A stretch of DNA of 64,000 nucleotides from Lingula anatina (GCA_051362555.1 CM120646.1:2666001-2730000); one strand, 5' to 3'; positions 18,703-55,433 are shown, counted from the first letter of the stretch. The notes: generated from the letters alone by a model not told the origin. Numbers and translations: made by a program.

Positions 18703-21700
18703 ATGGCGGGTCTGGTGCATGAAAATGGCAGGAGAGACATCATTATTCTAGTGCTCCTTTCTTCTCTCATCGGAGCTGTCAGCAGTGAGAGTACTGGTAC
18801 AGGTACGTGTGCCCCTCCCCCCATCCCCGACGAAGCCAATTTTGAGAAAATATATCTTGCAAATAATTCTGCCGGGAAGGTCCCATTTTTTCTGCTGACC
18901 GTAGTTTACAGGTAGTATGACGAGGTGCTATACCGGGAAAGCTACCAACCACGTTATAGAGCACGATGAGAGCCAAAGCGGTTCACAAAATGGCGGTGTT
19001 AGTTCTGAGTAGTCTCTTTCATTTCAAACGTCCACTGTGGATTTGCCCCGGGTACTGTATGAATATATGTACAGTCTTGATAAGCAAGGCCAAATAATGG
19101 GGGTGGGGGCATTAAAAAACAAAATGTATGGTTAGGTAAAGCAACAGCGACAATATGACTTTTGAAAAAACATTTCTAGCTGAAAGTCCCAACGAGCAGA
19201 TAGTTTTTTTTTTTTTTGTGAAAGAGCTGTACGCCATGCATGACGCCATGCCGGGTAAGGTATTGACTCAATTGAATTTTGATCTGTTGCGTAGTTGGTA
19301 AAGGATAGAGATCAATGGCCATCCCCGCCATGCCGACATGCCGTTACGATGGTTTGCTGATGAATAGTTTTTCTTTTTTTTCTTTGCAACCAAGCACGCT
19401 ACCGACTTCGATGTGAGTGAACCGCCACACTCTTATAGTAATCAAACGCAATTTTTAGAAATTATTTCGAGCAGGACATCTTGAACATTTTGATATTCGA
19501 ACCCGCGTATTTATAATTGTCTAGCAATGTGTAAGAGGACGACGTTAACAAGGAGCCATACATGTAGCAGCTTCGTTAATTAGCTACGGATCAATTATTA
19601 GAAAGTTTCTACTTCTCACAGAGAGGGCCAGTTTGGCTGTACACAGGGGCGGATCGAGGATTATTTGAAGGAGGGGGTCCGATTTTTCAGGAATGACAGG
19701 CCTCGAATAAGAAGCCGACCCTCGCCCCCTTGGAGTGTTTTGGAGGGCAAACAGTGTCATTTTGAACGAATAAGAATTATAAATCTGCTAGTCAAATTCT
19801 TATTCCAAGAGGGGAATTTCAGTGTGAATTTTTTTCAGAAACAGAAAGGGGGGTATCAGGACTCCCCTGTGTGTGTTCGCTACATTTGATAAGAAAAGGG
19901 CATCCGCACCTGCCACCGTAAATCGTTATTTTAAGATAAGCCGTGTATTTGAAAGGGGGGAAATTAACATCTATAGCTAAAGATTTTATTTCGTTTTTTT
20001 TAAAGTAAAACCTCAAAATGTTGATCTTTTTGGCCTTTATGTTAACCCGCCAATGTAGTTTGATCTATTAAACTGAAAATACTACTACATTTACTATAAC
20101 TACTACTACTACTACTAATAATAATAATAATAATAATAATGACTATTTCAAAATTCAAATAGACGATCATTTATCCCCTTTTGTGTATTACCCCTGAAGT
20201 AAAATGCGTTTTCCTCTAACTTTCAGAAACGTGCGCAACAAAATATAGAGATTGCTTTTGCGAAGACAGACACTGCTTCTTCCTCGTTGATAAAAATATG
20301 ACCTTCAGCTCTTCTGAGCAGTATTGTCTTGAACAGGGCGGACATCTAGCGACAGTTCGGAGTGCCAACATGCAGCGAAGACTACATGGGATAGCTGGAG
20401 AAAGACGTGTTTGGATTGGTGCAAGGGAACACGTGATGTCGACATGGACGTGGTTGGATGGATCTTCATATATCCCAAGTAGTAGTCCGTTTCATTTCCT
20501 CTAATGATTTACTGTATGGGACTAAATTATAACGCCTATTTTTGGGGGCATGCGGTTATATCATAAATATAATTGTTAAACCTTTTTTGTCTTACAAAAG
20601 CTCTTTTAAAACGGATGCCCATTTACTAGTAGGGGAGAGCGGGGTTGGTTGGAACAGTTTTCACCTTTTTTGCGATATCTCAGCAGTCAAAGCTTTGGGG
20701 ACAAAAATAAAAAATCTGATAGGGGAAAATTATATGCCGCACTTATCTATGTAATAAAACATCAAGTAGGTCTTTTTATTTTAGAGTAATAAATGCTCAA
20801 AGTTGGCTCCTAAAACGTTCCATCTCACCCCACCCGCGGGGTCAGTTGGAACAGGCAGTGGGGTGAGTTGGAACAAGAGGGCGAGTTGGAACGCTTGCAT
20901 ATAAATTCAAAGTATAATTCATTTTAAGAGTAGGTTTATCTATATTAATTTCCCAACAAGTACGTGTTACTTTGTATTCGTATCTCCATAGTTTGTAAGC
21001 ATTTTTTACGTTTACAATTTGCTTTCAAATAGTCTTTTCGATGTATAAACCATATCCAGTTACACTTCATTTCATAATGATAACAAAAGTGGTGTAGTTT
21101 AAGAGAAAAGAAATTGAACACATATAACTCAACCTATTAACAACATTATGTTAGACCTACAAATGAAAACTGTATCTCTTTCAACTCAACAACTCAGAAT
21201 CAAAATCGCAGTTCTGACATATGTAGGCCCTACACTTGGTCAACCTTTGTACAGTCTTCATGTGACCACTTTAGACAAACAATGCATTTAACCCATTGCT
21301 CTTTTGGTCGGCTGTTAATGAACGGCTCCCCACAAACCAGACATGGCCACTCTTCTTCTGACTCAGAATCGCTGGTCATCTTTAATTTCCCTTTTCTTGA
21401 TTTTCTCTATCGACTAGAAATCTTAAACTGTTTTTTATTTTTGTTGCGCTTGTCCTTTTTAATTTTGTTGGGCTTGGCCTTTTCTTTTTCGAGTAGCTCA
21501 TTTTCAGGTGTGTCAGTTAGTACTGCACTGCATCGTTTTCTTCTTTTAATCTTTGGAATGCGACGGTGAGCCTTTGGAAAGGGTCTAATTATTGCTGGAC
21601 TTGAGCTGTTTGGGGTTTTTCTTAAGTGAGCTTTAGTGTGCTGTAGCACCTCTTCCGGTGAGGGCAACTGAGATTTCAACTGAATCTTTGTCTAAGTTAC

Positions 21701-24700
21701 GAGGTGAATGTTTGTCTTTTCTGGCGGATTTTGTACCGTCGTTCACTAAACATTAACAGCAACCCCCAATCCATTACTTAAAACATTTGAAACCACATCG
21801 GCAGAGTTGGTGTTGTATAGTTTATCCATAACATAGGCTCTCAGCTAGAATATTTTCATTTTGCCGCGAAAAGCAGAGTAATAATCAACATTTCCTTCCA
21901 CATCTAAAAGCAATTTATCGCAAAAAGCAACAGTGGGCATGCAGACCCCTTTCGACCAAACAGCTAGGAACTGCATTTAACAAGCAATGACCCCCCCCCC
22001 CTTGTATCTTCTACACGCATGTACATTCCGGCATCTTGGAGATGTTCTATCAGCTAGATTCCGTCTCCAGTTGGAGTTGTACTGGGTTACTACGTTACTA
22101 CTCTCTTCAAAGTTGAAATTAAAACATTTAGAGAGGTTTAAAAAATGAAAAACACCGTGCGGGGTGGGTTGGAACACCCCTGACAGTGTTCCAACTGGCC
22201 CCATGTCAAATGTTCCAACCAGCCCCCATGACGTCATCGCCTACTTATGACACTGTATTTCTTTAACACGTGGGAAGTGATTAAAAAAAACAACAGCCTT
22301 TTGAACATCAAGGTGGTCCTAAACGCTATGCACAATTTCAGTGATATAATCCTTATACTTTAGTTTACAGCACGATGAATGTCAAAAATATGAAAACTTA
22401 CTTCGAGTAGCGAAAATACGTTTTTTTCGCATAAAACTTTTACTGCATTTTCGAAACTTCCACAAGTTTACCGGATGAATAACCATGCCACGTGACATTT
22501 TTATTCTGAAGGAGCACATGATCGGTCTTGTGATTTAAGAAATAAAGCCAATGTTCCAACTTACCCGCGTTCCAACCCACCCCGCTCTCCCCTACTTTTT
22601 TTATTGTACCCTAGTACTGTACAAGGTGCTAAATATGTCACTCATAATATACAAACGCTAGTAAATCTGTTTTGATCCGTACAGCTCATGCTGATCCATG
22701 ATTTAGAAAAGTATCATTTACTTAGTTCCTTGATTTTCTTACAATTTTTATAAAACCATTTGAATATGTATCTCAAATTGCAACTATATTTGGTGATATC
22801 TCTTTAAAGAAAATACATGTGTTCTACATGTAGGTGGTTTCAATCAATTTGATACCTCAAACAGCGAGTCCACAGCTGTGATGCTTTTAAGGAGCAGGGG
22901 GCAGTGGACTTGGAAATCAAGCTCTAAATTCGGAGAAAAAGGTTATTTGCGAAACAGGTGCGTTATAAATTTCTTTTAAATAATTAAGATCACATACGTT
23001 ATTGTTTTAAAATTGTGTGTATTTCCATTGAAGAATCATTTCAGTTTTAATAACCAGTCTGATTAAATGTTATCGTAGACCTAATAGGCAACAAAATGCC
23101 CTCTTGAGAAAAGGAATACATTTGAAAGCAGGTAAATGAATGAATGAAGAAATAAAGACAAAAAAACTCCAATTACTTAGAACATTGTCTATAAGATTGG
23201 TTTAACGCAATGTTCAAACATCTGACTAAATTGTCTTGCCTACAGGTAAACTTGAACTGAACTGTACTCCCAGCAATGACGATAACGTCGTGGTATATGA
23301 ATTGGATGGTCGTTGTATTCTATACAGTCTAGGCAAGCAGTACTACTCGTGGTATCAAGCGAGGCAAACATGTAACAGCTTCAATGCAGATCTCATAAAA
23401 ATGGCAAACGAAGAAATTCAGACAAAACTTTGGTCGGTTTTTGGTGTTTTGGCGCCTGACGAGCGTTGGATTGGACTGCGGAATAATGTATGGAGATGGG
23501 AGTTATGCGGTTAGTATTATCAAGAAGTTATATAGAGAAGGACCTTCTCTTTATAACTTCTTGGTATTATCATTGGTTCTTATAATCATTGGGTCTAATT
23601 GTTTAACTACATCACACTTGAGAATTTGATATTACAGTTGAATAAATAGCTTCCAGTTGAATAAACAGCTTTCATTAATATTTTTTATCCTGAATGTGCA
23701 TTTCAGTAGTCAGATAAATTACCAATTTAACAGTTTGATTTTAAATATTGAAAACATACTCTGTGCAGATTAAATGATAATGAAAACGATTTCTTGATCT
23801 GTTACTTATAATGCATCTTACTATAAATAATTATTCAGTATGCTTGCAAACGGCCGTGAAATAAGAATCAAACGCTAAGAATTAATGGTCCTATTATCTC
23901 TTCTAGGTCAAGAACTAAAAGAATGGCACTGGTCAGATAGGGTGGTTGGAGGAGAATCGAAACATTGTGTCATTCTTGATAATCGCTTACCAGAATTTAG
24001 AAGCTGGGAACCAGTATCCTGCACGGAAGCGCACAATTTTGTTTGCGAAATTCGAGGAGAGGTACAAAAGAAGGAGGAAAAAGAAAAACACTCAAAAAGC
24101 GCAGGCAAGGCAACCAAATCTTTATTGTGAAAAATCCTTTTAATTTAAAGTATAGTTTGTAATGAAGGTGGCAAATCGCAGTACGAAGCGTTATTTGTTC
24201 ACCTTAAACGGACATACTAAGCGGTTTAACTCGGAAATGATGCACAAAAACGCCACTTTCACAACATCAAACACTCTAAATTAAGAAGACCTAATTCAAA
24301 TTAACGTCAGACACACGACAGCTCTTATCATCTTAACAACTATGATAGCACTCTTCCTCGGTTTGTGTGTCCCTTAAAGCAGGTTTACTAACTGCATCGG
24401 TGACTGTTGTAATACAACGTTTTTCCCCAACCCATCTACATGTTCCTCTAACTCGTCAAGCGCATTTATTCAATGGTCTTGAAATTGTCAGGATTTATCG
24501 AAAAGGGGCTATATCTGGGTGGTAATTTTAATTAAAAAGGGTTTCAGACAGACCATCAGAAGGGCTTGAACGGAGAAAACCCTTCAGGAAACTCTATTTG
24601 AATTGCATTTGTGTTTTGTAAATAGAGTCTAAATTTTAAGAAAATTTTCAAACTTCATTTCCAGAAAAATCTCAAGATTCCGCCGGTAATGCGTTGGATT

Positions 24701-25515
24701 TTTGCTTCCGTTCATTTTACAATAGCTTCAGCCAGAAAGTTAAACTTAACTTTTTGACAAGAATTCAAAATAAATCTACCATAGTCAACTTGATAGTAAA
24801 GGCATCGGTCTGAAACATTAGTCATGCACTGACATACGATGTGCTTTATAAGGCCCACACTTCAACTTAGATGTTTAAGAATTGAAAGTCATTTTCTGCT
24901 AGAATACTCTGTTCTGCCAATATTTTATATTTTAACGCTATTATTCTGCATTTGTCAATATAACATTTGTATTTTATTTCAATAGGAACTATAGCAGGGG
25001 CATGTGTTGGTGGGTTAGTGTGTATCATAGCCCTATCCATTGGCATCATCATTTTTGTTCGACGGAGGTGAGCATTTTTTGAACATAAATGAAGCTGTAA
25101 ATGAAGTTACCGTCAGAGCTATACTATTGGATTACATTTTATTCTGTTGTTGCTTCAAGTCGGTGATCCTGTACATAAGTATAATTTTTTTACATTTTTA
25201 TTTACCGTAATACTTATCCCCCTGTAGTGGTTTTAATTGATGATGAGTTTAATAGCTGTTTTAATTTAAAATTAAGATTTTTATTTTTAATTAAAATGTT
25301 TCAGAAAACAAAAGACTCGACAAGAGACAAGAGACGGTGAAAGCCAGGATGCGAGATACTCAGATCTCTACACTACACCAATTAACTTTCAATCTAATTC
25401 TTCAGCTCCGGAAGAGCCTCCACAATACACACGGCTCTTCGTTCTCAGTTCCAGTGAATCTCCCTCGAATGAACCTGAATATGTAAACATAGTTGAGAAC
25501 GATTCATATGGCTGA
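18703..25515 (+). pseudogene. Double C-type-lectin-domain type-I receptor, copy 1. A 2-nt deletion in exon 3 makes it a pseudogene, a truncated allele or an assembly error.
   Basis: Exons 18703-18802 (signal), 20227-~20484, 22834-22957, 23246-23509, 23907-24104 (GC donor), 24986-25067 (TM GTIAGACVGGLVCIIALSIGIIIFVRRR) and 25305-25515 (tail ending EYVNIVENDSYG*). Exon 3 is 124 nt against 126 nt in copy 2 (GGTTATTTGC vs GGTTTTATTTGC), which gives a stop at the start of exon 4. Confidence 0.75.
20632..22592 (-). mobile_element. Internally deleted Tc1/mariner-superfamily (pogo-like) element with a decayed transposase C-terminus (PHD finger)
   Basis: TIRs GGGGAGAGCGGGGT.GGTTGGAAC, a TA target duplication and repeated GTTGGAAC motifs. 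The minus-strand remnant reads IRPFPKA..LTDTPE..CLVCGEPF..WVKCIVCLKWSHEDC..YICQNC, with a stop and a frameshift. The element is absent from the paralogous intron at ~30150. Confidence 0.8.
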
Positions 25516-25760
25516 CTCGTTTGTTTTGTGAGTTAAGTAGTTAGGTTCGTGAACATCGTAAACGAAAGTTTTACCAACACAGGTAATAAATATCTAATGA
25601 TAACCCACAGAACAAACTAAACAAAACCTATTCTCATTTCGCAAACTGTGTAAATATGAAAAAGTGAGATCTATTCCATGTTTTTATTTACATAAAAATT
25701 CTAAAAATATACGTTGGCTTTGATTGACATAAATTATAGTGTGATTTGCATTATGAGTAG
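24880..25760 (+). repeat. Inverted paralogue of ~42725-43735 (intron end, TM exon, intron, tail exon, 3'UTR)
   Basis: Shared TATTATTCTGCATTTGTCA, an 82-nt TM exon ending GTTCGACGGAG|GTGAGCATTTTTT, TCAGATCTCTAC, TATGGCTGACT and AAGTTTTACCAACAC in the 3'UTR. Confidence 0.85.
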
Positions 25761-27496
25761 TATATTATGTAAAGTTCCTAACTTCATGGGTATTTTAAGC
25801 TGTTAGATGACGCGATAATTTTGCCAGACTCGGCTGTGCGATGGTTAGAGCACGGTATTGTATACTTGTATTAAATACAAGCAAAGTCCACTGAAGTTTC
25901 TGATTTAATAGGCCTTAATCGAACTGGGGAATACATGCACCCACGGCGCGAACAGAGTAAGTCTCGTATCGTTTATTGCCCCGGCGTCCTCTACATAGAA
26001 ATGACTAAACTGACTGGAATACCTCTAAATGATTCTTTAATAGGAGTCACAATCTTATTGTCCGGTCATAACCGACCATGTCCATTACCATTTTATCGAC
26101 TGTTCTATTTCATTAGCATTTTTATCAATTGTTCTATTAAATCATCATTTCACTGTTAAATCGTTTAATGATGCATGTGTGAATTTCCTAAACATTGACC
26201 GTTCATTATCAATAAAACCATGATGTGCAATACGCAAATCCGGCGTACTCATTGACTTAATGACAAGATCACCGATAACAATGTATACATACACAAAAGA
26301 CAAATACCATTTTGTCTTAAAATTAACTTCACTGAAATAATTAATGCCTACATGCAAAGCGTTTCATAGTCCTGTTATACAGAGTTACAAGTCATATTCC
26401 TGGCGTTCTGTGCTCTGTTGCGTTGTGAGAAAACGGATCGCAATTGGCATTAATTGCTTGTGATAACTTCCTTCTTCATCTGTTGGTAAAATATTCCATT
26501 TTGTAGGACAGTTTTTGATCCATCAGATCGTTTTCCTCGGTAAAAATGCAAAATGGATGATAATTTCAATAACCACAGCACTTTTCAGATGGGATTTATA
26601 GACTTTTATTAATGGAATCATCATCTGTCATTAATTTAAATAAAAATGTTGAGCTCGTTATAATTAACATTTTTCTACAGAATACATTTATTCAGAGGAG
26701 TGTATCGAAGAAAAAATGGCTATGAATTGTTGAACCCTTTCCTGGCCACAGAGACTGGTCAAGTCATCACCTTCGGAATCTGCAGAATAACACAGAAAAC
26801 AATGCGCTTTACTCAAATGTCATAACACCTTTATTTTTTCATCGTAATGTCTTGAAATTCTCACTGTTGTGGAAAAATATAAATGCAAGCGTACTTCAAA
26901 AGTATTCTTAAAAACTTGTCATAGCACCAGTGTATTTTTTAAATTGACATTTTTCCTTTTCCGAATTATTATCTTTGCTTTAAATTTTCATGGTGTTCCG
27001 ATGATATTCAATGCAGGCACTTTAGAAATAATGATTTTTTAAATAAAAATATAATTATAATATAAAACATAGAAGTATCGTCTTGCTGCAAAGTTTCATC
27101 CAACTTTCTGTCACGATAGTCAATTTCAAATTTAAAAAAAAACATGGACCCAGCACAATTTTGACTTTCATATGTTGTCTGCTATGGCTGTCCTACACAA
27201 TGTAATTTGCCAAATTTCAAACCGATCGTAAAAATAGAGATATATTCAATTTATACAAGCTATTTTGCGCTTACTTATGATCTCATACTGGGGATCTCAC
27301 TGGCTGGTGAAAGTGAAACGCTCCTGGGCCTTAAGAATAACTGTGTCTCCTACATTCCTCGGCGTTTGCTCGAGCGATAAGTCTCTGACGGTTGTCTTTT
27401 CGTGAATTTTCCAATTTAATTCAGGTTGGATAGTTTTGCCGATGGACCAAAAAGTGCATCAGATATAATATGATCTGACTCTTCTAAAAAAAGGAG

Positions 27497-30400
27497 TGAA
27501 ACCTGACTCAATGCTTTAATGTGAATATTGCGTTCGTATCCATGCATTGTTTTCGAACGCCGCAACTGTGGCAATTTGGAGTAGATAATTCTTTCTTCTG
27601 TGCTTTTACATTTTTCTTATTATTACCACTACTATCCACTATTACTAGAAATATAATAAAAATAATTAATATTATTTAATATCACAACAACAACAACAGC
27701 AGCAATAACAACAACAATAATAACAATAATAAATAAATAAATAAATAAATAAATAAATATAAACACTGTTGAATAAACCTGCTGCACATTCTTCATTATA
27801 CATGTATTTGTCAGTATTTGTTTCCCTGATCCGTCGTGTTACGAAAAAATGTCGCATGAACTCTGTTGAATCAATATGAATATCAATCTGTGGAGCAACA
27901 AGCTGTATACGGGCCTGCGAATGACACGGGACTGATCGAATTTTTTAAGCTTTTGTCAAGATTCAGGGACGTTATATATAAGAGTGCTCAATTTCACGTG
28001 CAACCATAGTCACAGTGGAGAAAATGGATTTTCCTTTCTCATATGAAAGAAAAAAGAAGTATAAGTTTACAACATGTCAACGCATGATTCGAAATCAGAG
28101 GCCCTTTTTAAGGAGGCGAATGAGTCATAATGAGCACCAGGAAGTGACCTAATTTTACATGCACCCGTGTACCGGTATGTCGATAATATTGTTTTATGTT
28201 TTATAATGCCCCACTTCTCATGTTAGCGACATGTGACCGTGTGTAAAAGGTTTACTGCGTGTTGATTGACTTGATTGACTTCTAAGACACTTACACAGCG
28301 TGAAGAGTGGAATCTGTTTTTAACTGAGGATGACGTAAGCGTCCTCGACATCAACCTCAAGTGACAACCCTCAGCTAATTAAGACTCAAGACCGCGGAGA
28401 CAGGACCTAGCACTGAGCCTGACGCCAAGCCAGTGAGAGTGACCAGATGGCGGGTTTAGTGTATGAAAGTGACAGGAGAGACATTATCGTTATTCTAGTG
28501 TTTCTTTCCTCTCTCATCGGAGCTGTCAGCAGTGAGAGTACTGGTACAGGTACGTGTGCCCCCCTGCCCCCTGCCCCCCCCCCCCCCTCTTCGACACCTC
28601 CCTTTGCTTTGTGTTTTTTTATACATGTACCACCCATTTGTCAGATTCTCACACCTAAGTCTTAAACTCTTCTCATAGCTTCGTTATTCATAGCTGGCGT
28701 ATAGCTGGCGTTTTTATTCTACAGCAAAAAATACTTTTCGTTATGGATATCAGTACCAGGTTATGGTCAGGTCATAGCTAAGTAAACTTTAGTATTGACA
28801 TAGCCCCGTATTCGACTCCTCCGAATGTCTGCCGTCACGTTGTATAAGCCAACCCGGCCCCTCCCCCAAATTCATTTCTAGTGCTATCAACACACGTACA
28901 TGTACTTCCTCCTTCCCTCCTAAGTCTCTCTGTCGTCATTAACCCCTTCCCCCGGGGGTCATAGTGCCCCTAAGAGCCGCACTCAACCTAAACCCTCTCC
29001 TGTAGTTGTCAAGCGCTCCTCCCCCCCCCTCCCCCCCCCCCCCCCCACACACACACACACACACAAACCTCTTGGCTCACTCTGGCAACACTGCCCTTCT
29101 CCTGTGGGCTCTAAGAAGTCGGTTCACTCCCACTCTGTTGTCATTAAACCCACTTACATGTATCCCTGTACCCTACTCCATTCAAAGTCTATTCCTCAGT
29201 CTGTGGAAGCCACTGTGACAGTTTAGCTTGTATTCAGAATCAATTTGACCCCTTTCCCTTCCCAAAACGTGTCACTAATGAAGGATTTATTTACGTTTGC
29301 GTACATATATACACAGTACAATCTTGGTAGATAACACTATATTAACAAAAGTGCTGGGTAAAGTCACAACGAGTTTATAGTATAAAAATATAACTTGCGA
29401 CTTCTACATTCACCAGTAAAACACATACTTGGGTACGTGAGAAGCAACTTTCTCGTACATTAATTAACGTCCTGATGCAAATACTGAATATTAACACCCG
29501 TGATAACGTTTACCACGTTAACTTAAGTATTTTATTACTTATAATTATGAAGAGACATATTATAAGTATAGCTGTTTAAACCCAGTTAAGAACACTATGG
29601 GTAGTGTATATCTCAGATATACTATCTGGTATATTCAGAATCCCACAGCCAATCTTATATCACAATGTGATGCTAATTTCTCCCGATTTGTGTATTAACC
29701 ATGTAGTAAATAGGGCATTTTCCTCTTTTAGAAAAATGCGCAGCAAAATATAAAGATTGCTTTTGCGAAGACGACCACTGCTTCTTCACAGTTGATAAAA
29801 ATATTACCTTCAGCGCTGCTGAGCAGTATTGTCTTGAACAGGGCGGACATCTAGCGACAGTTCGGAGTGCAAACGGGCAGCGGAGACTACATGGGATAGC
29901 TGGAGAAAGACGTGTTTGGATTGGTGCTAGAGAGCACGTGATGTCGACATGGACGTGGTTGGACGGTTCTCCATATATCCCAAGTCCTAGTTCGTTTCAT
30001 TTTCTCAAAGGGTTTACAGCATTTTCTCAAAGGAATTACATTATTGGACTAAATTATAACGCCTATTTGTTGCGGCATACGGTTATATCATAACATAATC
30101 GTGAAATGAAACTTTTTGTCTAACAAAAGCTCTATTAAAACGGGTGCCCATTTATTCCTTTTTACTTTACATGCTGCTATCTATGTCATTTTATGCAAAC
30201 GCTAGTAAATCTATTTTGAATCATTCAGCTCTTGCAGATCCATCCATTTAAAAAAATATCATTTACTAAGTTCATTGATTTTTTACTTTTAAAATTGTTG
30301 AAAAATTAAAAATTAATCGATTGAAAATGTATCTCGAAATGCAACTTTCTATGTTGACATCTCTTTAAACCAATGCATGGATCTGATGTTTTCTACATGT

Positions 30401-31540
30401 AGGTGGTTTCAATCAATTTGATACCTCAAACAGCGAGTCCACAGCTGTGATGCTTTCAAGGAGCAGGAGGCAGTGGACTTGGAAATCAAGCTTTAAATTT
30501 ATAGAAAAAGGTTTTATTTGCGAAACAGGTGCGTTATAACACCCTTTTAAATAATTAAGATCACATAAGTGAAGATGTTTTAAAACTGTATATTTCCATT
30601 GAAGAATCATTTCAGTTTTAATAACCAGTCTGTAAATTTTAATATGTTATCGTAGGCCTAATAGGCAACAACATGCACTCTCGAGAAAAGGAATAAATTT
30701 GAAAGCAGGTAAATGAATGATTGAAGAAATAAAGACTAAAAAACTCAAATTATTTAGTACATTGTCTATAAGACTGGTTTAACGCAATGTGCAAACTTTT
30801 GACTAATTTGTCTTCCCTACAGGTAAACTCGGAGAGAATATGAACTGTCCTACCAGCAATGACGATAACGTCGTGGTATATGAATTGGATGGTCGTTGTA
30901 TTCTATACAGTCTAGGCAAGCAGTACTACTCGTGGTATCACGCGAGGCAAACATGTTTCAACTGGAATGCTGATCTCATTAAAATGTCTACCGAAGTATT
31001 TCAGACAAAACTTTTGTCGGTTTTTGGTGTTTTGTCACCCGACGAGCGTTGGATTGGACTGCGGAATAATATATGGAGATGGGAGTCGAGCGGTTAGTAT
31101 CAACATTGGATCTTATTTGCGTCTAATTGCGGAACTACATCACACCGTTTTAACAGTATTTCGATTTGAAACATTTAAGACGTACCCCATGCAGATGAAA
31201 TAATTATAAAAAACGATTTCTCGATCTGTTACTAAGAATGGGCTAACCAGAAATTCTCATTGAGTATGCTAGCGAGCGGCCAAAACATCAGAATCGAACT
31301 GTGATAATTAATGATACCATTATCTCTTCTAGGCCAAGAACTAAAAGAATGGCACTGGTCAGATAGAGTGGTTGCAGGAGAATCGAAACATTGCATCATT
31401 ATTGATAATCGCTTACCAGAATTAAGAAGCTGGAAACCAGTATCCTGCACAGAAGAGCACTGCTTTGTTTGCGAAATTCAAGGAAAGGCGCAGAAGAAAG
31501 AGGGAAAAGAAAAGCACCCAAAAAGCGAAGGCAAGGCAAC
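27497..31540 (+). repeat. Segmental tandem duplication, unit 2
   Basis: Colinear with 16900-24110 but lacks the insertions at 17057, 17966 and 20632. Confidence 0.85.
28121..28340 (+). promoter_or_regulatory. Candidate AP-1 (TGAGTCA), ETS (CAGGAAGT) and CRE-like (TGACGTAA) sites upstream of lectin receptor copy 2
   Basis: The motifs are at 28121, 28138 and ~28331. The paralogous promoter keeps TGAGTCA (17676) and AGGAAATG (17697). Motif matches only. Confidence 0.35.
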
Positions 31541-33194
31541 TCAGTATACAACTGTATAAGAGTTGAGAAGCCTCCGCGGAAGTCTGTGCTCTCTGGGTGC
31601 TTTTCTAGTTATAGGTGTTTTCATATATGTTCTTTTTATAATAATATTACATTTTTTAATTTCTTCAGCAATATCCTCATATTTTCCTCAAATGTGTGTT
31701 ATTGCTTTTATTTGCCATTATCTAAACTGTTTTTTTTAAAATATATTTATTCTTTTATTTTTATTTATTATTATTATTTTTATTGTAAAAATATCATGAT
31801 AACGTGATTCTATACCATCGTCCAAAAATACCTGGTAATAAAATGGTTAAAGAGAGATTTAATGTAAAATATCTTTACAGGTGCTCCATCGCAGGGCAAT
31901 GTGGTCGGTATAGCAGTAGGCGTTGTGGTAGCAGTTCTCGTTATAATTGCTGTAGTGGTGCTCGTGGTGATTTACAAGCGACGTAAAAGGTGGGCCAGTA
32001 GGTCTGAAAAAAAACTTGTCTAAGCTATTACTAACTCATTCTCTCTGTCTTTTTTAAGTTTTTTTACTGTTGTTCCTGTTTCTACTCATACTTGCCTTTG
32101 TCTAAACATTTTTGATATTTGAAATAGGCCTACTCAAAAAGAATAACGATAGGAATAATATATTATGTATTGCTTAAAGGGATAATAACTCTTCGTATGA
32201 GATCTATATTTCACAATAAAAACCTTGTGAATAACTCATAGAAATATAATTTATTCTGTTTTACCACAAAAACAGCAGTTACAGCTATTATTCTGATATC
32301 TGAACTTGTCTTTAGACTACGTGACCTCCATTGATGTCTATACTCTGTTAAAATCTCTTAAGAGATTTTAACAAAAAACCAAACTTTTTAGAAAAAAACC
32401 AGGGACTAACTTTGAATGTAAAAATGGATTCATTAACCATTGGTAAGTATGGGAAAATTGTTGTTTACTCCAGGAAAATTCATTTTTTGGCCGAAACGAA
32501 GAGTTATTATTGCTTTAACTGATATTGCACTTTTTGTACCTAGAAATCGCCTTAATCGAACATTTAATATTTGAAATACATAAAAAGAATAACAAAGGAC
32601 TAATTAATTATGCACTGCCTAATTGATATTGTACTCTTTTTACTAGAACTTGTCTTAATCGTAACATTAAATATTTAAAATACACAAAAAGAATAACGAC
32701 AGGTATAATTGTATTATGCATTGCTTAATTGATATTGTTCTTACGCTGGAAATAATTTGTTTACACACAGGGCGGCTCAAGCTAGTGACGGTGTTCAATA
32801 TTCAGAAATTCCTCGAAGTGGCGTACAGGACAAAAACACAAACCAAGACACTTACGCCTATGCTTCCACCGTTCTTCCAGCAAATTGTACGAAAGATACT
32901 ACGGATGCAAGTGCGTACAGTTACGCAACACCCCGTGTACGCATGGCACCTCTCGGTCTCGAGGAAGAGAATGCGTACGCATACGCAACAAATAACCCAT
33001 CTAAACATACTGGCAAGGCAGCAGTGACAGAAATCAAAATTTCAGATGGACCGAAGAAGGATAACGCAAATAGTGATCGAGATGAGGATGTGAGCCGTTT
33101 ATACAGCAAACCGAATAAAGCCAAGAATAGAAATGTAGACGAAACACAGAATTTTGTAGAGCTAAAGGAAAACGAATTATATAATCACGAGTGA
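28447..33194 (+). CDS. Double C-type-lectin-domain type-I transmembrane receptor, copy 2, with ITIM and tyrosine-rich tail, 7 exons, ~495 aa
   Basis: Exons 28447-28549, 29732-~29989, 30403-30528, 30823-31092, 31333-31530 (GC donor), 31881-31989 (TM VVGIAVGVVVAVLVIIAVVVLVVIY) and 32771-33194 total 1488 nt in frame. CTLD motifs: AEQYC..GGHLATV..VWIGA..WTWLDGS..FICE and ARQTC..ADLI..RWIGL..WRWE..HCII..W.PVSC..FVCE. Confidence 0.85.
32105..32745 (+). repeat. ~105-bp intronic tandem triplication
   Basis: AACATT..ATATTT.AAATA..AAAAAGAATAAC...TATG.A.TGC.TAA.TGATATTG occurs three times. The first unit is interrupted by the Kolobok-like MITE. Confidence 0.7.
32178..32514. mobile_element. Kolobok-like MITE
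   Basis: TIRs AGGGATAATAACTCTTCGT / ACGAAGAGTTATTATTGCT with TTAA on both sides. It is inserted into one unit of a local tandem triplication whose third unit shows a single TTAA. Confidence 0.75.
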
Positions 33195-41883: not shown

Positions 41884-42121
41884 ATGAATAATTCCCACAA
41901 AAAATTAAAAAAAGAAAACTGAGAAATGCAAACAAAGACGGCACCTCAGTCACAAGTGGTAATCCTTCTGCAAGGATTTACTTGACAGTTATCATCTCGA
42001 CGCCCATGGCATACCACAGCCCGGATTATCTATTCAACAATGGGAATTTTTAATGGAATAAACACTTAGACACTTACATATAGGGGCCTACTGGAGAGTG
42101 TGAACTGACATTAGAAACGTA

Positions 42122-42320
42122 GACCCCATTTCCAGAAGTTAGATCTATCTACTTTAGATCGACCTAACTCCCTGGGGCTTCACGCTAAATAGCTGTCAGC
42201 CGAGCGGACACGAAAGTTAATTACCCCCTTACAACTTGTAGTAGGCGGGACGGACATTTAAGCCGGATTATCTGACAGTAATCTAGTGAGACTCCCCGCG
42301 GGGATAGATCGATCTAAAAG
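42122..42320 (+). mobile_element. MITE family A, copy 3 (right TIR truncated)
   Basis: Near-identical interior to 52492-52705. Confidence 0.8.
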
Positions 42321-43010: not shown

Positions 43011-46000
43011 TCAGCCATATAAATCATTTTCAACCATGTTTACAGAGTCTTCAGTGCCGGTGTCATAGAGTGAATTTGTTACCAGAAGAACGTCAGTTGA
43101 GCATTCGGGTTCCTTTGAGGGAGTCTCGCTGGGGCTGTGAGTAAGAAGCGTCGTGTTTTGTGGAGCCTCTTCCGCACTTGAAGTATAAGTATTGGCTTTA
43201 AATTTGATCGGTTTAGCGTAGAGATCTGAGAGCCTAGCCCCCTGATTGTCACCGTCTTTCTCATCTCTTGCCTCGGTGATGGCACCAGAACTATCTCGTT
43301 CAATTCGTTTTTCCTCCAAAACAGTATTTCGTTTTCTAAAACAAAATTAACACATAAAAATGAAATGCGAACAGAACCAACAAAAAAGCATTTAATTATA
43401 GCCACCATGATGACAATTAACACAAACCAAGGAACAAAAATTACTATAAACAAAGACACAATTATGTTGAGATACATGGCCATCTTGTGGGAAGTTAACT
43501 CAGGTTAATATACTTCATTTATATCTTTATTCATGCTCAAAAAAAATGCTCACCTCCGTCGAACAATAATGATGATACCAGTGCATAGGGCTGTGACACA
43601 CGCAAACACACCAAGACATATCCCAGCTATGATTCCTATGAAAATAAATAAAATCCTAACAGAGCAATGACAAATGCAGAATAATAGGGTCAAAAGTAAA
43701 ATACTCATTTTGAGCATTAAATGCACTTTCAATTATATTTACAGGACCCCAGTGCTTTAAAGTGTTCATAATTCTTTACATATATATGGCATGTATGTAC
43801 CTTTACAAAGCATATATTCTTGCAGAAATCGCCCCTCCAATCAACCTGTACGTAGCGTGGGTCTTATATATCGTAGCATAATTTCTGTTTTATGATAATG
43901 AGTTTATACCTAATGTTTAAGAACAATACTGATATCACCAAGCTGAATACAAAGGACTGTTTTGAATTTTGATCTGCAATTTAAATCCAACTTCCTGGTT
44001 AAAGTTCTATTTTAAAGTAAGGTCCTGGGGCAAAAGCAAGAACCGGACCACTTACCGGCTGAAACTTGAGATTTATCTGGAACCGAACAGAAAGGCATTA
44101 AGCATGAGGTTTTCAAAACTAGTGAATCATATGAAAAATACAAAATTCACTCTCAAATTAAAAAAAAAGCAAGCTGCAATAAGCAACCACGTTATGTGAC
44201 AGAAATTATTGTAAGTATAAACGGAATAGCAGTGTCACAATTAAAAAAAAATATCACACCTGGAATTTTGTGACAGGTGCCCGGTGTCGTGTCAAATGTT
44301 CCGTTCTGGGTACACCTCAGCGTTTTGGACGTGTCACCCCCACCCAAAGCGTAACCCTTGCTGCACAGTATGGTCACCGTCTCGTTGAAGGCGTAGGGTC
44401 CAGGGGAACTAGGCATAGAATGTTCTACATGTGAGAGGTCTGGGCAAGCTGGAAATATACGAGAGGAACTGTTCACTATTTGACACGCCATGGGCACATG
44501 TTGCACTTATCTTCCCGTTTTTGATGTGAAAACTAGTCGATCTTTTGAAACTTTTTTCTCGTTTCGCTAAAGGCCTAAATTTGCCCTAAGTTTTTGATTT
44601 TTTTTTTTTTTTTTTCAATTTTAAGATACGGTTTACATGATAATGAACTTGAAATGTTTGTAAACTAAAATGAAAACGAAAACATTCACTACAAAACCAA
44701 ACTGTTGATTTATATTCACCTGGGAAACACAACGGAAATGGCTTGGCAAATGTTCCATTGGCTAAACAGGTGAGTATCTCAGTTTCTTTGACGGCAGTGT
44801 CAAAAAAAAATCCCTCTTGGCATCGCACTATCACGTCTTCCCCGCGTCTGTACGGTCCTATCTTTTCTGGAATAAGGTGACTGGCGATAAGCTCAGACGC
44901 GCGACACATGGCCTCGACACAAGGCGGGATGTGACCAAATGTTCCATTCGCGCGGCAGCTCTTGTTGATGCTAGATGCGCCGCTGAGTCCTTCTAGTTCG
45001 TATCCAACAGCACAGGTGTAAGTCACAATGTCTTTGTAGTGGTAAGTTTGACGTGCAGGGGTAATTGTAGCGTTGTTGACTTTATCAGGTATGCACTGCA
45101 CAGCTTAATATAGAAAATGCAAATAATAGGCTACTACAGTGTATTCTATTTAATAATGATAATAATATCGCTTCATTTTTGCAGTGACATAAACAATATG
45201 AATGTACAGAACAGAAAATATAGTAGAAACCCCATATAATGACATTTTGTTGGGCATCTGTATGCAGTTTAAACCATGTGACTGTCTTCCAGTTTGACAC
45301 AAACTTCCGGGTGACTTTTTTAAAAGTCAATATTAAAATATGTTTTCCAAGCTGAATCGAGAGATCGTATAATAGGCATATCAATCTAAAGCACTTGACT
45401 ACATATAAAAGTTGTCACTCACTTTCGTTGCAGCTTCTTCCTGTAAACCCCGTGTTACACAAACAGCGAGACCTCAAACCGTAATCCCTCTTGGAGCAGA
45501 CGCCATATTTGCACTTATCAATATCACCCCCACAAACCACATCTAGACAAAATGATATTTGAATATTTGTCACTTTTGGGGATTCAAATTAATAGGAAGA
45601 AATCACATAAATGAACTTGGCAACATAGTGTGCACTAGATATATCGAAATGAGCTAAATGTATATATTAGTTGTGTAGCACATGAACATAAAAATGCAAG
45701 AAATTAGAGATTCATATGAGAAATTAGATAACGAATAACAAATTAATTACCGAATGGAATGAAAAAATCAACACGTACTTTTGCACGTTGTATTGACAAT
45801 GTACAACGTTGAATCGACCGCCTGTTCTCCCGCTTTACACGCTTGTGATTCCGAAAAGGTAAAACAGTTCCCCTCTTTGTCAACCGTCCCTGGCCGGAAG
45901 ACCTGAAAGGCGGCGCATCCAGAGCCACGAGTGTCACAGATTTCCTTGCAGCACGACAGGGTGTTACAACCTTTGGCTCCCCGTGAACTTATGCCACTTA

Positions 46001-46864: not shown

Positions 46865-46897
<33 letters not shown>

Positions 46898-47599: not shown

Positions 47600-47750
47600 A
47601 TATTTTCTGACAGTCCTCCAAATTATCTTTGTTGATTCATCTTTCATTTTTGACCGTCTTCCGACAGAAAAAATTAGAAACCCATCAATGTAAACTTGGA
47701 AATCTGACCGTCTTCCGGAAGACCCAGAAGACGGCCTAAATCCGCCCCTG
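47600..47750. mobile_element. Truncated copy of the 10496-10663 MITE
   Basis: CTGACAGTC.TCCAAATTATCTTTGTTGAT...AAATCCGCCCCTG is shared with 10520-10663. Confidence 0.75.
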
Positions 47751-49417: not shown

Positions 49418-52400
49418 CTATCCGTCCCCGTATAACTCATTTTCAACCAAGACCACAGGTTCAGAGCGCATACTAGCACGTGCATCACTCTCATAGAGGT
49501 CGTTGTCAACCAAGAAAATCCCTGTAGGAGACCCGACATCGTTTTCGTTTTGATCGGGAACGCCTTTTACGCTAGTTTTCATTTGATTTTCACGTTCTTC
49601 CAAAGAAGGGGACTCTTTTCGCTTTTTGGCAGGTTTCGCGTACAGGACTTCTCGAGCATCTTCTGTATCAACTTGAGCTGAAGGCGACACCATCGGGACC
49701 ATTTCCACTGCATCATCCATAGGTGGAGCGTCATTCGTTCGCGTTTTCCTTTCGCCGTTGGTCTTATTTCTAAAATATTAAATGATATCAAAACAAAATA
49801 TAATTGTTTAAATTGCCTTAGCAATGAGTTACTCACTTCCAATATTGCACAAACACTGTTTTCTAAAAATAAATAAATAAATAAAATAAACAAAGACAGT
49901 GAAATTTAATTCAGAATTAAATAAAGTGCCAAGAAATGACTAAATATATTATGTGAAATAAATTAACCAGCTAAATTAAAAAAAAGAAATAATCGAAGGT
50001 GCACTAACAGCTGATCAAGCAAACATGTAAAATAACACATCTTTTAATCAAGCAGGCAAATTACATGTGCTGATGAAACATTGGCAATATCAAAAGCAGT
50101 TAGACTCTCATCTGTCCACCTTTTAGTGTTCATCATATAAAATTTATGAATCAATTGGCTTATAAATGTAGCATCTGACCAGCCACTGCCTACCTCAAAA
50201 AACAGCACACAGCAAGGAGTATCACCAGTGCAATTACCAGAACACCGCCCACCCCTATACCCGCCACAGCGCCTGGAAAATAAATAAATAAATAAATAAA
50301 TAAATACAAAGAATAAGGTGCTAATCTACTTGTTTCTGTAACTAAAAAAATATTGCACAGAAGAATATCATGGATACATGAAGCTTATTTTTTTCTCTAA
50401 CCATTAAGGTACCCGGCTTGTGTTTCCCACAACAATGAACATTTTATGTACCGGTACTTCATAATTAAATTACTATATTTTGTCCACAGCATATCCTCGG
50501 ACGGTTTATATTAATACAAATGTTATTTTAATTTGATTTCCTCTTTTTTTTTAATTCGGCAGATGTCATTTACGAATTGGGGGATGCCGATTAAATCTTC
50601 AAATAAGTTTATGGTACTGTAACACCAGTGTTTACCTAAAGAAAGTCCTTCCTTTGCAACTGTAGGATCACCCGAATCTGAAAAATAAACTATTATTGTG
50701 CACTAGAGAAAAGTAGTCACTTGAAGCAGTACTAATATATGTATGTAATGACTTGACTGCTACATGTAGCCTACCCGTGTTGAACAGACCTACATTGTAC
50801 TTTGACGACATTAATACACAAATAGGCATATTTGTCAACAGACTTCAAAACAATATCTATACTGCATTTCAAAATCACAAATGCGTCTGTTTTATTTAGC
50901 GTTCGTACATTATAATAATAAATATGAGCCCACATGCCCCCACCCCCTCTATTTGCTTTTTCTGCAGTTAATATTCGGAAAAACATCTTTATGATATAGT
51001 GGTTCGATATTTACCCAAACATTCCAGTGACGTCACGTTGACAGACAAAGTTCCGCTCGGGTTACACGTCACATTAAGAGTGACGTCACCATTCTTGAAA
51101 CTCTTACCCTGGGGGCACCGTAGATTAACATTTAATGGGCCGGCAGTTACGGATATTACGCTGGATTTAATGTTCTTGACGTCACATCCGCCTGGGAGAC
51201 AAATGACGTCACTAGTATCGATAAATCCGCTTTCCTCACACTTTAATACCCACGACGTTTGTCCTGAGCGTGACGTATAACCGGGCCGGCAGGTATATGT
51301 GATCGAATCATTGAGGTCATATGGCCCTTTATGATCTGGGGTAGCGTTTGTAATGTTGTCTGGAGCTGGACACTGTATTGGTTGACAATCTAAGAAAGTT
51401 CTGTCAAAGGACCCATTTGATAAGCATTTCAACAGAACTTGATTTTTTTCACTGGTAGACCTGTAACCTTTACTGCACTTCACTAAAACCAAGGTGTCTA
51501 CATTGAAGATTGGTCCATCTCGATATTGTAAATGCAAGTGCTGTGGCATACGGCATTTTCTTGCCACGCAGTCTGGTATTGTCTGAAACTCGCCGTTTGC
51601 CTGGCATTCCACGGTGATTTTTGACTGGCCATTTGAACCTTCCAGCTCAAAGCCTTGGCCGCATGTGAAGTCCACTTTATCGCGGTAGAAATACGTAGCT
51701 TTCCGTGGCTGCATTTCGCCTTTGTTCTTATAATGCAGCTCGCAGATGACCCCTGAAAGAACGAAAAGTTGTACATCAAAACATATTGCATCAACATTGA
51801 AATCACGCAGGCGTATTTATTTCATATACAGCTTTAAAATAACAGAGCGGTATGTGTTCAATTTTACATTAAAAGAACATAATTAAGTATAATTTTGGTC
51901 TCAACTTTTATACGGAGGCGTTTAAACAACTTTAACTCAGGACTGATCTCTGAGGCAAATAGCATAGTGGTCTAAAACAAGACCAATTCGTTTACTTTAT
52001 TGTAAATGATGTCATGAAGGAAGCCAAACATAGGTCGTCTTAGACTGCGTCTCTGTCTTAAAATTAAAAACAAATGTGAAACGGACTCTAGGATATTACT
52101 TTGGTCGCAACGTCCTCCTTTGTATCCATCAAAGCACAGACACTCATCCGGAGTCCACGGTTTGTCCTTGCAAACTCCATGTACGCAAGCGCCTTTGTAC
52201 GTGCAACCCTCTATACCTGCTATAAATTAAACAAATAAAATGAACATAGAATAATGACAAATAAGTTAATCAAACAGCCAATTAACATAAGTTAAATAAT
52301 TTACATAAATACATGTACATGTACCTACAGAACTACACACGCATCGATATCTATCACATATCGAAATAATGTAGATTTAGTATTTTAGTAGTCTTATATC

Positions 52401-53527
52401 GTTCAAAAGCCTGGGCATCTATTTTAATCATGACTGACATGACTGGCATGTAAACATAATAAGCTTAGTAATATGAGGAAATGCTATATAAGACCCCATT
52501 CCCAGAGATTAGATCGATCCAACTAGATCGACCTAACTCCCTGGGGGTTCACGCTAAATAGCTATCAGCCGAGCGGGAAAGAAAGTTAATTACCCCCTTA
52601 CAGCTTGTAGTAGGCGGGACGGACATTTAAGCCGGATTATCTGACAGTAATCTAGTGAGACTCCCCACGGGGATAGATCGATCTAAAATCTATGGGAATG
52701 CGCCCTAAGTGTGCATCTGAATTATAGAACACTACAAAATAATACTATTAAATAAATAGATAAATATATAAACGAATTTTAATAAAACTGAACGCAAGAA
52801 TGCCCCTTCCAATCAGTACAAGTACAGTCCCGACACCGCCCACCACTAATTCTTTCTTCCAGGGTGATAAAAAAAGATTTCATAATACACACAAAAGTAA
52901 CAAAGAAAAATATTGTATTATTCACCAAACAGATAAATTAATTCAGGACAAAAAACGAAACTAAAAAAATCCATTCAGTGCAACCATGGGCATGACGTTA
53001 TTTATTAATTAGGTGTAATTCCATACCTCCACAAAAATATTCCTTGAGTAAGTACAAAGTAACACCTGTTTCTTCCCTGGCTTTTCTACACATACTAGTG
53101 TTGGTGTAATAGGTGCACTTATGCTGAGCAGACCCCGGTTGATTTCTGTACTCCAGTGCCGTACAAGATGGGTTATTATTACAGTAACCCAGGCAGCAGG
53201 CGACGGAGGAACACCGATGGAATACCTCGCTTCCAAACGTCAAATTCTCAAACACTTGAAATACATAACTTGGGTCTGTAAGTTAATGGGGAGAAAGCCT
53301 TAATTCATGCATATTTTATAGAACGATCCGTGAACAAGCATTCGTTGAGCAGTTTATATGTGATGTGGTTCAACAACCAACGATTACCACTGAAAATAAC
53401 CCCAACCAATTCGTGTTGACATCTTGTATACGTTCGATAGAAGCAGTTTTACTTAAGTATGGAACCGATAGCAATCGACATGAGTATATAGAGCATGCGT
53501 GTACATCAGTACGCTTGGTCTCCGTAG

Positions 53528-53603
<76 letters not shown>

Positions 53604-55284
53604 CTTACAGCCACACACTAAAGGAGTCCTCTCGCAGTCCCATGTTTGGTCTTCAAGACATGTGCAATGGGCGCTTCCCATCACGTGAACACGTGGTAAG
53701 TCACAGGTATAGCTGATGGTGTGGCCAGGGTCATACTTGTCAAGTCCCGATGTGGTGGAGGCGTAGGCAGGTGTCTGCGGTCTTTTACAAACTGAAGTCA
53801 AAAAACCAATGCAACATGTACTGTATAATTTGCTCCTCTTTTTTCCAAGCTACAGACGGTCAACTATGAACAAAATTAGAGCCATCATATATTAAAAAAT
53901 CGCATTATGGGTAGGTCAATAAAGTTCCAGTAAAGCTTTGTAGACTTTATAGACTATGAATCACTGATACGATTGCAGATATTACGAAAAGGTAATGCAT
54001 AGTTATCCCCCTTGATTAACCCAGCTTACAGATTGTAAATAAAAATTGATATGTCTTGCTTCATGCACTTGCATTGACTTGCCATGCACAATGAACAATT
54101 AATGTTCGCCTTCGAAAGGTCATTGTAATGACACTGAGTGGCTCGACTGAAGAAAAAAAACATAATTCATCTTCTAAAAGTGTTGCTCATCAACAAAATT
54201 ATTCCGGCTACTAATGCCTCTCAGTATGGAGGAGTCGATTTTATCTTAATTTAAATGGACCCTTAGACTGGGTTCCCACAGATTTAGATCGGTCCATCTA
54301 GATCGACCTCACTCCCTGGGGGTTCACGGTAAATTGCTGTCAGCCGAGTGCCCACGAAAGTTAATTATCCCCTTACAGCTTTTAGTAGGCGGGACAGACA
54401 TTTAAGCCGGCTAAAATGACAGCAATCTAGTGAGACTCCCCACGGGGATAGAACGATCTAAAATCTGTGGGAATGCAGTCTTAAACACCTTAAACACCTT
54501 GGTCATGTCACTTTCGATAATTTAATTTAATTTAATTTAATTTTGTTTTTTGAACTAACATGGTCATTTTGATTTGCCACTTGATGCACCTGTAAGCCTG
54601 TGAGACATAACTTAAATATTTATAACGGTCCTAGGTAAGTATGAGAAGAGCCTTATACGGATCGAGAGATCAAATAAAAGTGCTCCTTTCAGTTATAATC
54701 AAAACGTTATCGGGTGACTCAGGGAAAGTTCCGATATTGCTCTACGTCCAAACGCATATCCTCCAGATGTACTGAGTTGATTACGTGGAAAGTCCAGCTA
54801 TACCAAGACAGAAACCAAAAAAGAAAGTGCGCCAATCGTCATACGTGAAGCCGTCAAGATAAGGAAACAACCTGCCCGAAGCGTTAACGTTGCCGACGGT
54901 AATATGCTGGAAAATTTTCAGCAAAGACGAGTGCGCTGTCTCAGATCTGGTATTGGTAAAGATGTGTGATTGTTACACCTTACCTTTCCCCGACCTGCGG
55001 TTGATAATGTCTCAAGTATAACTGGTATAACGGCGTGAGGGAAGCGGCTTCAGGGTATACCGCAAAAAAAAAAAAAAACGCATTCCCGAATACATGTATA
55101 ACTTAGGCCACCCCATGTCACACGTACACTACAGTGAAGTTATTGTCACCTGTGCTGGTACATGTACGTGTGTGTCCCCTCCCCCCCCCCCCCCCCCCCC
55201 CCCCCACACACACACCTAATTCTGCCCAATTTGTTCATACACTCCCTTACCCCTCACAACCTCCTATATTATGTTTTTTAAACT

Positions 55285-55328
<44 letters not shown>

Positions 55329-55433
55329 CACACACACACATTAACAAACAGACAGTTCTGACGCACCTGATGTTGCTTGATCGGCCAAAATAATGATGAT
55401 GACGACCCTAAAGACTGAGCTCTTAGCGGCCAT
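49418..55433 (-). CDS. Type-I receptor: signal peptide - CCP - PAN-like - EGF - 4x CCP - TM - tyrosine-motif tail, 8 exons, ~609 aa
   Basis: Exons 55433-55367 (MAAKSSVFRVVIIIILADQATS), 53791-53609, 53275-53027, 52219-52100 (CVHGVC..CLCFDGYKGGRC), 51752-51015, 50677-50636, 50272-50194 (TM AVAGIGVGGVLVIALVILLAVCCFL) and 49769-49418 total 1830 nt in frame. It is a paralogue of the 43011-47160 gene (shared TY.Y.D.V..TC..G.ELEG..G.S.I...C.ANG.F..IP.CV). Confidence 0.82.
52492..52705 (+). mobile_element. MITE family A, copy 4
   Basis: GACCCCATTCCCAGAG...CTATGGGAATGCGCCC with TAA on both sides. Confidence 0.85.
53531..53600. repeat. Compound (GT)n(GA)n microsatellite immediately downstream of the donor of the CCP exon 53791-53609
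   Basis: Direct observation. Confidence 0.95.
54266..54480 (+). mobile_element. MITE family A, copy 5 (variant TIRs)
   Basis: GACTGGGTTCCCACAGATTT...AAATCTGTGGGAATGCAGTC with TTA on both sides. Confidence 0.85.

Follow-up and report, generated by a model that had tools for sequence, protein, structure and literature searches.

A receptor gene cluster of Lingula anatina in which unlike ectodomains are joined to a common tyrosine-motif tail

A stretch of 64,000 nucleotides (nt) of the Lingula anatina genome (GCA_051362555.1 CM120646.1:2666001-2730000; the window) contains, within 37 kb, six predicted genes, here called A to F, of which five encode single-pass membrane proteins. Four of these, A, B, D and F, are predicted receptors of two unrelated ectodomain kinds. 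A and B have two C-type lectin domains (CTLD), and D and F are built from PAN, EGF and sushi modules. All four are of type I, with a signal peptide and a C-terminal tail, and none contains a catalytic domain. A sequence-only reading of this DNA had described them as kinase-less receptors in which two double-CTLD and two PAN-EGF-sushi outer parts are set on one kind of tail, each with a phase-1/phase-2 transmembrane (TM) exon and a single tail exon, and in this the gene models agree with it. It had overlooked that A is a chimera and is frameshifted, that a 21-nt micro-exon lies ahead of the membrane exon in A and D, and that F begins with an additional sushi exon before its PAN exon. The models of B, C, D and F are open throughout, with no internal stops.

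The last exon of each receptor contains one LY[AST][KT]P and one EN[DE][LS]Y. A six-frame scan of the whole window identified these four copies of each motif (25366+, 33099+, 43223- and 49645- for the first; 25495+, 33168+, 43031- and 49444- for the second) and none besides. Simulated windows (n=60) had a mean of 0.43 copies of LY[AST][KT]P (maximum 2) and 0.07 of EN[DE][LS]Y (maximum 1), and a relaxed pattern of LYxxP followed by NxxY no more than 4 residues from the stop was observed four times against 0.23 in simulated windows, although all of these patterns were drawn post hoc from the four tails and the chance figures therefore overstate the surprise. YxxP and a terminal NxxY are present in 4/4 receptor tails, and the D and F tails each have a second NxxY (p 0.02 and 0.01, uncorrected). 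The tails had been expected to be of an ITIM/NxxY type, which is borne out for NxxY and not for the ITIM (immunoreceptor tyrosine-based inhibitory motif), since an ITIM-type motif is found in one of the four, that of B, with a shuffle p of 0.18. The corresponding activation motif (ITAM) is absent from all five tails, those of the four receptors and of C, and ITAM signalling was rejected. In B, D and F the best helix of 21 residues contains no charged residue, and neither does the core of the TM exon of A.

Gene A is made of parts of B and D. This was mapped by blastn of the window against itself and by comparison of 150-nt tiles. In the self-blastn, A lies on B from approximately 16.9 kb to 24,114, and its match to D, in inverted orientation, spans 24,921-25,761; the tiles carry the D-like part back to 24,596, so that the switch is located between 24,114 and approximately 24,600. 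Exons 1-5 of A are 88-95% identical to those of B, and the promoter of A is also B-like. Beyond the switch, the micro-exon of A matches that of D at 18 of 21 nt, splice sites included, and the cassette intron scores 146 against that of D, where the shuffle maximum is 42. The TM and tail exons of A give z 16.5 and 16.9 with D and z 2.5 and 0.5 with B (100 shuffles). A and B therefore have the same ectodomain with another tail, and A and D the same tail with another ectodomain, which argues for at least one graft inside this intron. As judged from these alignments, the triangle of A, B and D indicates that the tail has moved between receptor classes at the DNA level; the graft may have run in either direction. 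Since all of the ectodomain exons are phase 1-1, the membrane-plus-tail cassette fits behind any of them. The tails of A and D are common by descent, and there are thus at most three independent cases of the tail motif.

Exon 3 of A is 124 nt rather than the 126 nt of B. The two missing bases fall in a T-run, and a stop closes the frame where exon 4 begins. It is possible that the shortfall is a sequencing error; no insertion at the gap is among the read variants listed, at a depth there of approximately 1. A cryptic donor that would restore the frame was spotted by eye in exon 3, with a poor match to the consensus. The swap probably left gene A as a by-product that is decaying or depends on the allele. 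With their near-identical ectodomains and different tails A and B have the look of paired receptors, but a pair with opposing signals is not what was found: A is frameshifted and both tails keep the same core motifs.

Five of nine available Lingula RNA runs (X1, X3, X4, X5 and X7), which carry no tissue label, were mapped at 92% likeness, with 6-25% of each run read. In the three runs mapped to both halves of the window, each of the four receptors is covered in X4 and X7 and hardly at all in X1. A and B also have next to none in X3, and D has weak depth in X5. The X4 reads are sense-strand for all four receptors. The co-expression expected by the sequence-only reading is thus seen for the receptors and does not extend to C and E, which are silent or near-silent in X4 and X7. 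Six of the seven D introns and introns 1, 2 and 6 of B are among the joints listed, beyond which there are 26 and 38 further ones, and no F joint is among those listed. Several of the listed joints connect A exons with B exons, as expected from mosaic alleles. The tail bin of A has a depth of 4.5 in X4 and 0.8-1.7 in X7; the D sequence is approximately 80% alike to the A tail and so should not supply these reads. In both A and B, exon 5 ends at a GC donor (24104-24106 and 31482-31531). An upstream exon-5 donor gives a shorter stalk, and this form of B is among the joints listed, is used in X4 and equals RefSeq isoform X2. As this haplotype has no GT at the upstream donor, the length of the stalk varies with the allele.

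The window is not the only version of the cluster. A second model of B (XP_013397310.1), from a contig of 41 kb, disagrees with the B of the window at 5 of 493 residues. RefSeq XP_013382509.1, nearly identical to the D of the window, and XP_013382504.1, a version of B, are both recorded for a contig 703,171 bases long. The cluster would accordingly exist in at least two further haplotypes. The database protein P0007 is taken as an allele of B because it probably shares the 703,171-base contig with the D model and their accessions are near-consecutive. Between the B of the window and P0007 there are differences at 0/34 positions in the signal exon, 9/127 in the first lectin domain (CTLD1), 28/140 in the second (CTLD2) and 9/140 in the tail, and CTLD2 and tail differ in divergence (Fisher p 0.0012). 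Between the D of the window and P0001 there are six differences in PAN, one in EGF, none in sushi and six in the tail. A restriction of the variation to the PAN domain of D was rejected; it holds for P0001 and is contradicted by the reads over the sushi exons.

Of the read variants, 40 of 368 and 40 of 259 are listed. Among the annotated coding variants listed, 19/25 in B and 22/32 in D are non-synonymous, and none alters a motif residue. As had been expected of a functional tail, the motifs are also retained in other haplotypes, in P0001 (with only the terminal L changed to I), P0004, P0007 and P0008, the single-sequence fold of the last having a predicted local distance difference test score (pLDDT) of 38.6. 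Some of the variation is shared between the paralogues A, B and D. Five of the seven X7 variants listed over the TM exon of D are the base of A (rough p 2e-5), and P0007 agrees with A at 9/27 of the sites that distinguish A from B in the second lectin domain.

A search with the tail had been suggested by the sequence-only reading. A profile of the four tails, run against 1.84 billion representative proteins, gave four matches, the D model, the B model, P0002 and P0003. The last two are repetitive proteins whose matches were put down to chance, and they were rejected as tail relatives. The profile had no match in the PDB. Since a motif this short is unable to attain significance in searches of this kind, the small number of matches does not show that the motif is rare. 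The membrane-plus-tail part of D had a top score of 0.88 in an atlas search, where fragments of SCIMP, LIME1 and MUC1 are leads only.

Among the 24 fragments scanned with Pfam, Lectin_C (B exons) and Sushi (D and F) were above the curated cut-off, PAN_1 and EGF on F were just under it, and no family was found for the three tails scanned, for C or for E. The PAN exon of D has no Pfam match and is assigned only from its position and cysteine pattern. None of the calcium-sugar motifs EPN, QPD, WND and WDD is present in B or in the exons of A, so the lectin domains of both are likely to bind protein or other non-classical ligands. No database protein was found for intact A, C or F, where annotation gaps or search misses are possible. 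The large sushi exon of F had no matches among 785 candidates of more than 430 amino acids (aa). An F-like protein was not found though the tail of F was in the profile, and presence/absence variation or an annotation gap is possible. The positions of all of the models and of their parts are given in Table 1.

Table 1. Predicted genes, exons, tail modules and chimera segments in the window, numbered from its first nucleotide.
Feature	Position	Strand	Description or evidence
Gene A, chimeric double-CTLD receptor	18703..25515	+	self-alignment, exon comparison, RNA depth on tail bin in X4, X7
A exons 1-5	18703-18802, 20227-20478, 22834-22957, 23246-23509, 23907-24104	+	third exon 2 nt short, frameshift; fifth with GC donor
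A cassette exons	24665-24685, 24986-25067, 25305-25515	+	micro-exon, TM, tail
Part of A resembling B (exons 1-5 and the region upstream)	16894..24114	+	self-blastn to 27489-31540; tiles
D-like cassette of A	24596..25761	+	micro-exon, intron, TM exon, intron, tail exon, 3' untranslated region; inverted relative to D
Tail module of A	25366..25515	+	LYTTP ... VENDSY-G-stop
Gene B, signal peptide-CTLD-CTLD-stalk-TM-tail, 493 aa	28447..33194	+	RNA joints; RefSeq XP_013397310.1, XP_013382504/5.1
B exons	28447-28549, 29732-29983, 30403-30528, 30823-31092, 31333-31530, 31881-31989, 32771-33194	+	
Tail module of B	33099..33194	+	LYSKP ... ENELY; three Y-x-Y repeats and one ITIM-like VQYSEI upstream
Gene C, predicted transmembrane adaptor-like, 505 aa	34598..38745	+	exons 34598-34727, 36397-36481, 37443-38745
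Gene D, signal peptide-PAN-like-EGF-3 sushi-TM-tail, 487 aa	43011..47160	-	RNA joints; RefSeq XP_013382509.1
D exons	47160-47085, 46045-45779, 45542-45423, 45103-44720, 44448-44260, 44076-44056, 43635-43554, 43335-43011	-	
Tail module of D	43011..43223	-	LYAKP, two NxxY
Gene E, predicted orphan of two exons, ~160 aa, without TM helix	40774..41883	+	
Gene F, signal peptide-sushi-PAN-EGF-sushi repeats-TM-tail, 608 aa	49418..55433	-	open frame; Pfam; RNA depth
F exons	55433-55367, 53791-53609, 53275-53027, 52216-52100, 51752-51015, 50677-50636, 50272-50194, 49769-49418	-	
Tail module of F	49418..49645	-	LYAKP, two NxxY

The block is flanked by PAN-module genes, as the sequence-only reading had it, at approximately 12.0-12.4 kb (-) and 58.7-62.6 kb (+). 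The latter is a predicted secreted protein with a signal peptide-PAN part, an EGF-like part and a C-type lectin, and so has modules of both receptor classes. Its lectin at approximately 62.5 kb has QPD and WDD, unlike those of A and B; the middle lectin exon was not located. At 8662-12426 (-) a PAN exon is followed by glycine-rich-domain exons that have no Pfam match and that we take to recall the ALK/LTK ectodomain. A membrane protein of the UNC-93 family is encoded at 1463-5059 (+) (Pfam E 6.7e-22). A dispersed repeat of 200 nt is present in five copies (15505-15728, 17062-17341, 42121-42319, 52489-52711 and 54273-54476), is heavily covered by reads from elsewhere and could mediate rearrangement. 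Intron 6 of B contains a high-copy element with inverted ends (32174-32518), over which the X7 depth exceeds 1000.

The interpretation favoured here, with modest confidence, sees in this locus an allele-rich set of clustered single-pass receptors, among whose unrelated outer parts a membrane-plus-tail cassette has moved, and in the tail a probable phosphotyrosine docking site for one PTB-adaptor pathway. The role would probably be non-self recognition. Clustering by ligand would lead to phosphorylation of the receptor tail by a Src-type kinase. A PTB domain of the Dok/Shc type would then dock on the terminal hydrophobic-E-N-x-x-Y, and an SH2 protein such as those of the Crk/Nck/RasGAP kind on YxxP, and in this way the docking tail could couple changing recognition domains to one pathway. 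YxxP is bound by SH2 domains of the Crk, Nck and RasGAP type. For the PTB site, a proline-less NxxY in non-mammalian CD200R and the binding of Dok2 by an NxxY of VEGFR3 are described in the text of PMC8007030, and Y1062 of RET is described as a PTB site bound by Dok and Shc in that of PMC2150770.

A number of observations weigh against this interpretation. Gene A is frameshifted in this haplotype, and no intact A-type protein was among the three matches from 7,999 scored candidates. The joint from A exon 5 to the cassette is not among the 15 joints listed, and the X4 reads on A exon 2 carry the base of B at 2/2 listed sites and splice to B exon 3, so that they are probably from a B allele. At the DNA level the tail of B has no likeness to the other tails (z <=0.6) and those of D and F are only weakly alike (z 4.2), so part of the tail sharing may be convergence on short motifs; the tail profile matched no relative beyond these genes among the representatives searched. 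The variation in D reaches beyond PAN, with at least 12 variant sites in the sushi exons in the reads. Between the ectodomains of A and B, non-synonymous divergence (dN) is 0.082 and synonymous divergence (dS) 0.169, a ratio of approximately 0.5 that is not positive selection. PTB specificity is set by flanking residues according to the text of PMC4985636, and motifs of the NPxY type are described in that of PMC8007030 as serving trafficking mostly.

This last point also favours a reading in which the cassette has been swapped as above, but between uptake or adhesion receptors. Here the terminal NxxY would be an internalisation or cytoskeletal signal that is independent of phosphorylation, as in the tails of the LDL receptor and integrins. 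The closest solved structures to B are those of the endocytic receptors Ly75/DEC-205 and PLA2R, and the tails have no ITAM and one weak ITIM, both of which would suit such receptors. However, the likeness to Ly75 is limited to the lectin fold, the allelic divergence is high, and the conserved YxxP in an acidic context, the doubled NxxY of D and F and the tyrosine repeats of B suggest SH2 docking. This reading is considered credible and yet unlikely.

It is also conceivable that the locus is no more than a tandem patch of membrane genes that evolve fast, with generic invertebrate tail motifs, in which A is a dead by-product and the role is a non-immune one in the mantle, shell, gamete or epithelial surface. 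The frameshift of A, the silence of C and E in the mapped runs and the tails of B and D/F, which cannot be aligned as DNA, are all consistent with this, and similar terminal motifs may be present in many mollusc membrane proteins. The retention of the motifs across haplotypes, the on/off pattern across runs that is common to the receptors and the concentration of B divergence in one ectodomain argue against it, and it is judged improbable.

The sequence-only reading had also wired the receptors to C, an adaptor-like protein, and to the orphan E. Gene C has no signal peptide, an outer part of 43 aa, one TM helix and a tail of 433 aa with 26 Tyr. Its three YxN (p 0.14) and one YxxM (p 0.13) are not above chance; an acidic residue stands one to three places before Tyr in 21 cases, where 12.3 would be expected (p 0.006, from a set of 35 tests). 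There is no juxtamembrane CxxC, with one Cys after the helix, and no homologue of the tail exon was found among 3,726 candidates of 238-758 aa. The tail exon has no depth in X4, X5 and X7 and less than 1 in X1 and X3, and no splice joint of C is among those listed. It contains internal repeats at 38246-38378 (+) that give four DTYS motifs, and an AT-rich minisatellite directly past the membrane exon of C (36472-36787) repeats donor-like sequences. E has next to no RNA depth in four runs and an atlas score of 0.80, no link between it and the receptors was found, and a receptor-related role for it was rejected. Upstream of E, a 118-codon open stretch (40382-40735, +) has no Pfam match and no RNA depth. 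The proposed wiring is therefore not upheld for either gene, in that C has no depth where the receptors are on and E almost none. That the four receptors signal through C as one recognition complex is the least probable of the readings, in spite of the adaptor build of C (compare the adaptors described in PMC3342071), its excess of acidic residues before Tyr, its position mid-block, the fact that LAT-type adaptors need no charged helix and the chance that low or inducible expression escaped runs of which 6-25% was read, given its absent depth and joints, its chance-level motifs and the number of tests. C is likely to be a separate adaptor used elsewhere and, on its predicted features, should be seen as an adaptor candidate only.

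A more far-reaching form of the cassette interpretation is tentative and rather unlikely. In this form the micro-exon, membrane and tail exons, with YxxP and a terminal PTB site, would be a portable immunoreceptor cassette of the brachiopods' own that is still passing to unrelated recognition domains, A would be a working hybrid in other individuals, and C would be an induced downstream adaptor of the LAT/LAX type, the whole forming a kinase-less receptor-adaptor system with an origin apart from ITAM and ITIM signalling.

Membership in several known systems was considered and rejected. The lectin receptors of the natural killer (NK) complex are of type II and have an ITIM or, to pair with an ITAM adaptor, a charged residue in the membrane. 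A point of likeness is that calcium-sugar motifs are absent from the lectin domains of A and B. However, the Lingula receptors are of type I, have no charged helix residue and have an ITIM in 1/4, and the vertebrate NK-complex design proposed by the sequence-only reading does not apply. RefSeq calls B 'lymphocyte antigen 75-like' and D 'SVEP1-like', automatic names that reflect the lectin and sushi folds only. The architectures of Ly75 and SVEP1 are far from two lectin domains and three sushi domains, and orthology to either was rejected. CD200R1, as described in PMC8007030, is kinase-less like the Lingula receptors and signals, as these probably do, by way of a PTB site of the NxxY type and not an ITIM. 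It differs in its Ig ectodomain and its EEDExxPYxxYxxKxNxxY, found in 0/4 Lingula tails, and there is no homology; membership of the CD200R family was rejected on the tyrosine contexts and on Pfam. The LAT, NTAL, LAX and PAG adaptors described in PMC3342071 share with C a short outer part, a single helix and a tyrosine tail with YxN and YxxM, and C is like LAX in lacking the CxxC that LAT, NTAL and PAG have. No sequence homology between C and these adaptors was found, and C is from an invertebrate and is a predicted model.

No paper on this locus was found by title or abstract start, and these genes may have been listed before, for example in the Lingula immune survey of Gerdol 2018 cited in the text of PMC10140915. 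The closest parallels are in other invertebrates. The polymorphic GRC and PTC2 clusters of Biomphalaria (PMC4361660, PMC7494358) are likewise lophotrochozoan, are rich in single-pass genes whose ectodomains do not resemble each other, and show strong non-synonymous divergence between alleles. Their domains are unlike those of Lingula, they have been mapped to parasite resistance where the Lingula cluster has been mapped to no trait, and the parts of those papers on GRC/PTC2 mention no shared tail motif or tail swap. The Alr genes of Hydractinia (10.1101/2022.03.04.482883 / PMC9546547) are described as clustered single-pass receptors with one exon per module, exon shuffling, expressed frameshifted pseudogenes and tyrosine-motif tails, and in Alr30 an outer part like that of Alr2 is joined to another tail. 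As described there, Alr shuffling is within one Ig family, the tails are more divergent than the ectodomains and the motifs are ITAM and ITIM, whereas in Lingula the cassette crosses unrelated ectodomain classes and carries YxxP and a terminal NxxY.

Clusters of this kind are known already from the snail and the hydroid, and what sets the Lingula locus apart is the tail cassette that crosses ectodomain classes, together with an NxxY code in place of ITAM and ITIM. In snails, resistance to parasites is controlled by polymorphic clusters of single-pass receptors, as tissue recognition is in hydroids. The Lingula locus offers a short, testable tail motif that is common to unrelated ectodomains. 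It has a dated-looking graft of a tail between receptor classes, names a peptide that can serve as adaptor bait and illustrates one way for invertebrates to make new receptors. Even if the tail is an uptake signal only, the locus is a clean example of exon shuffling.

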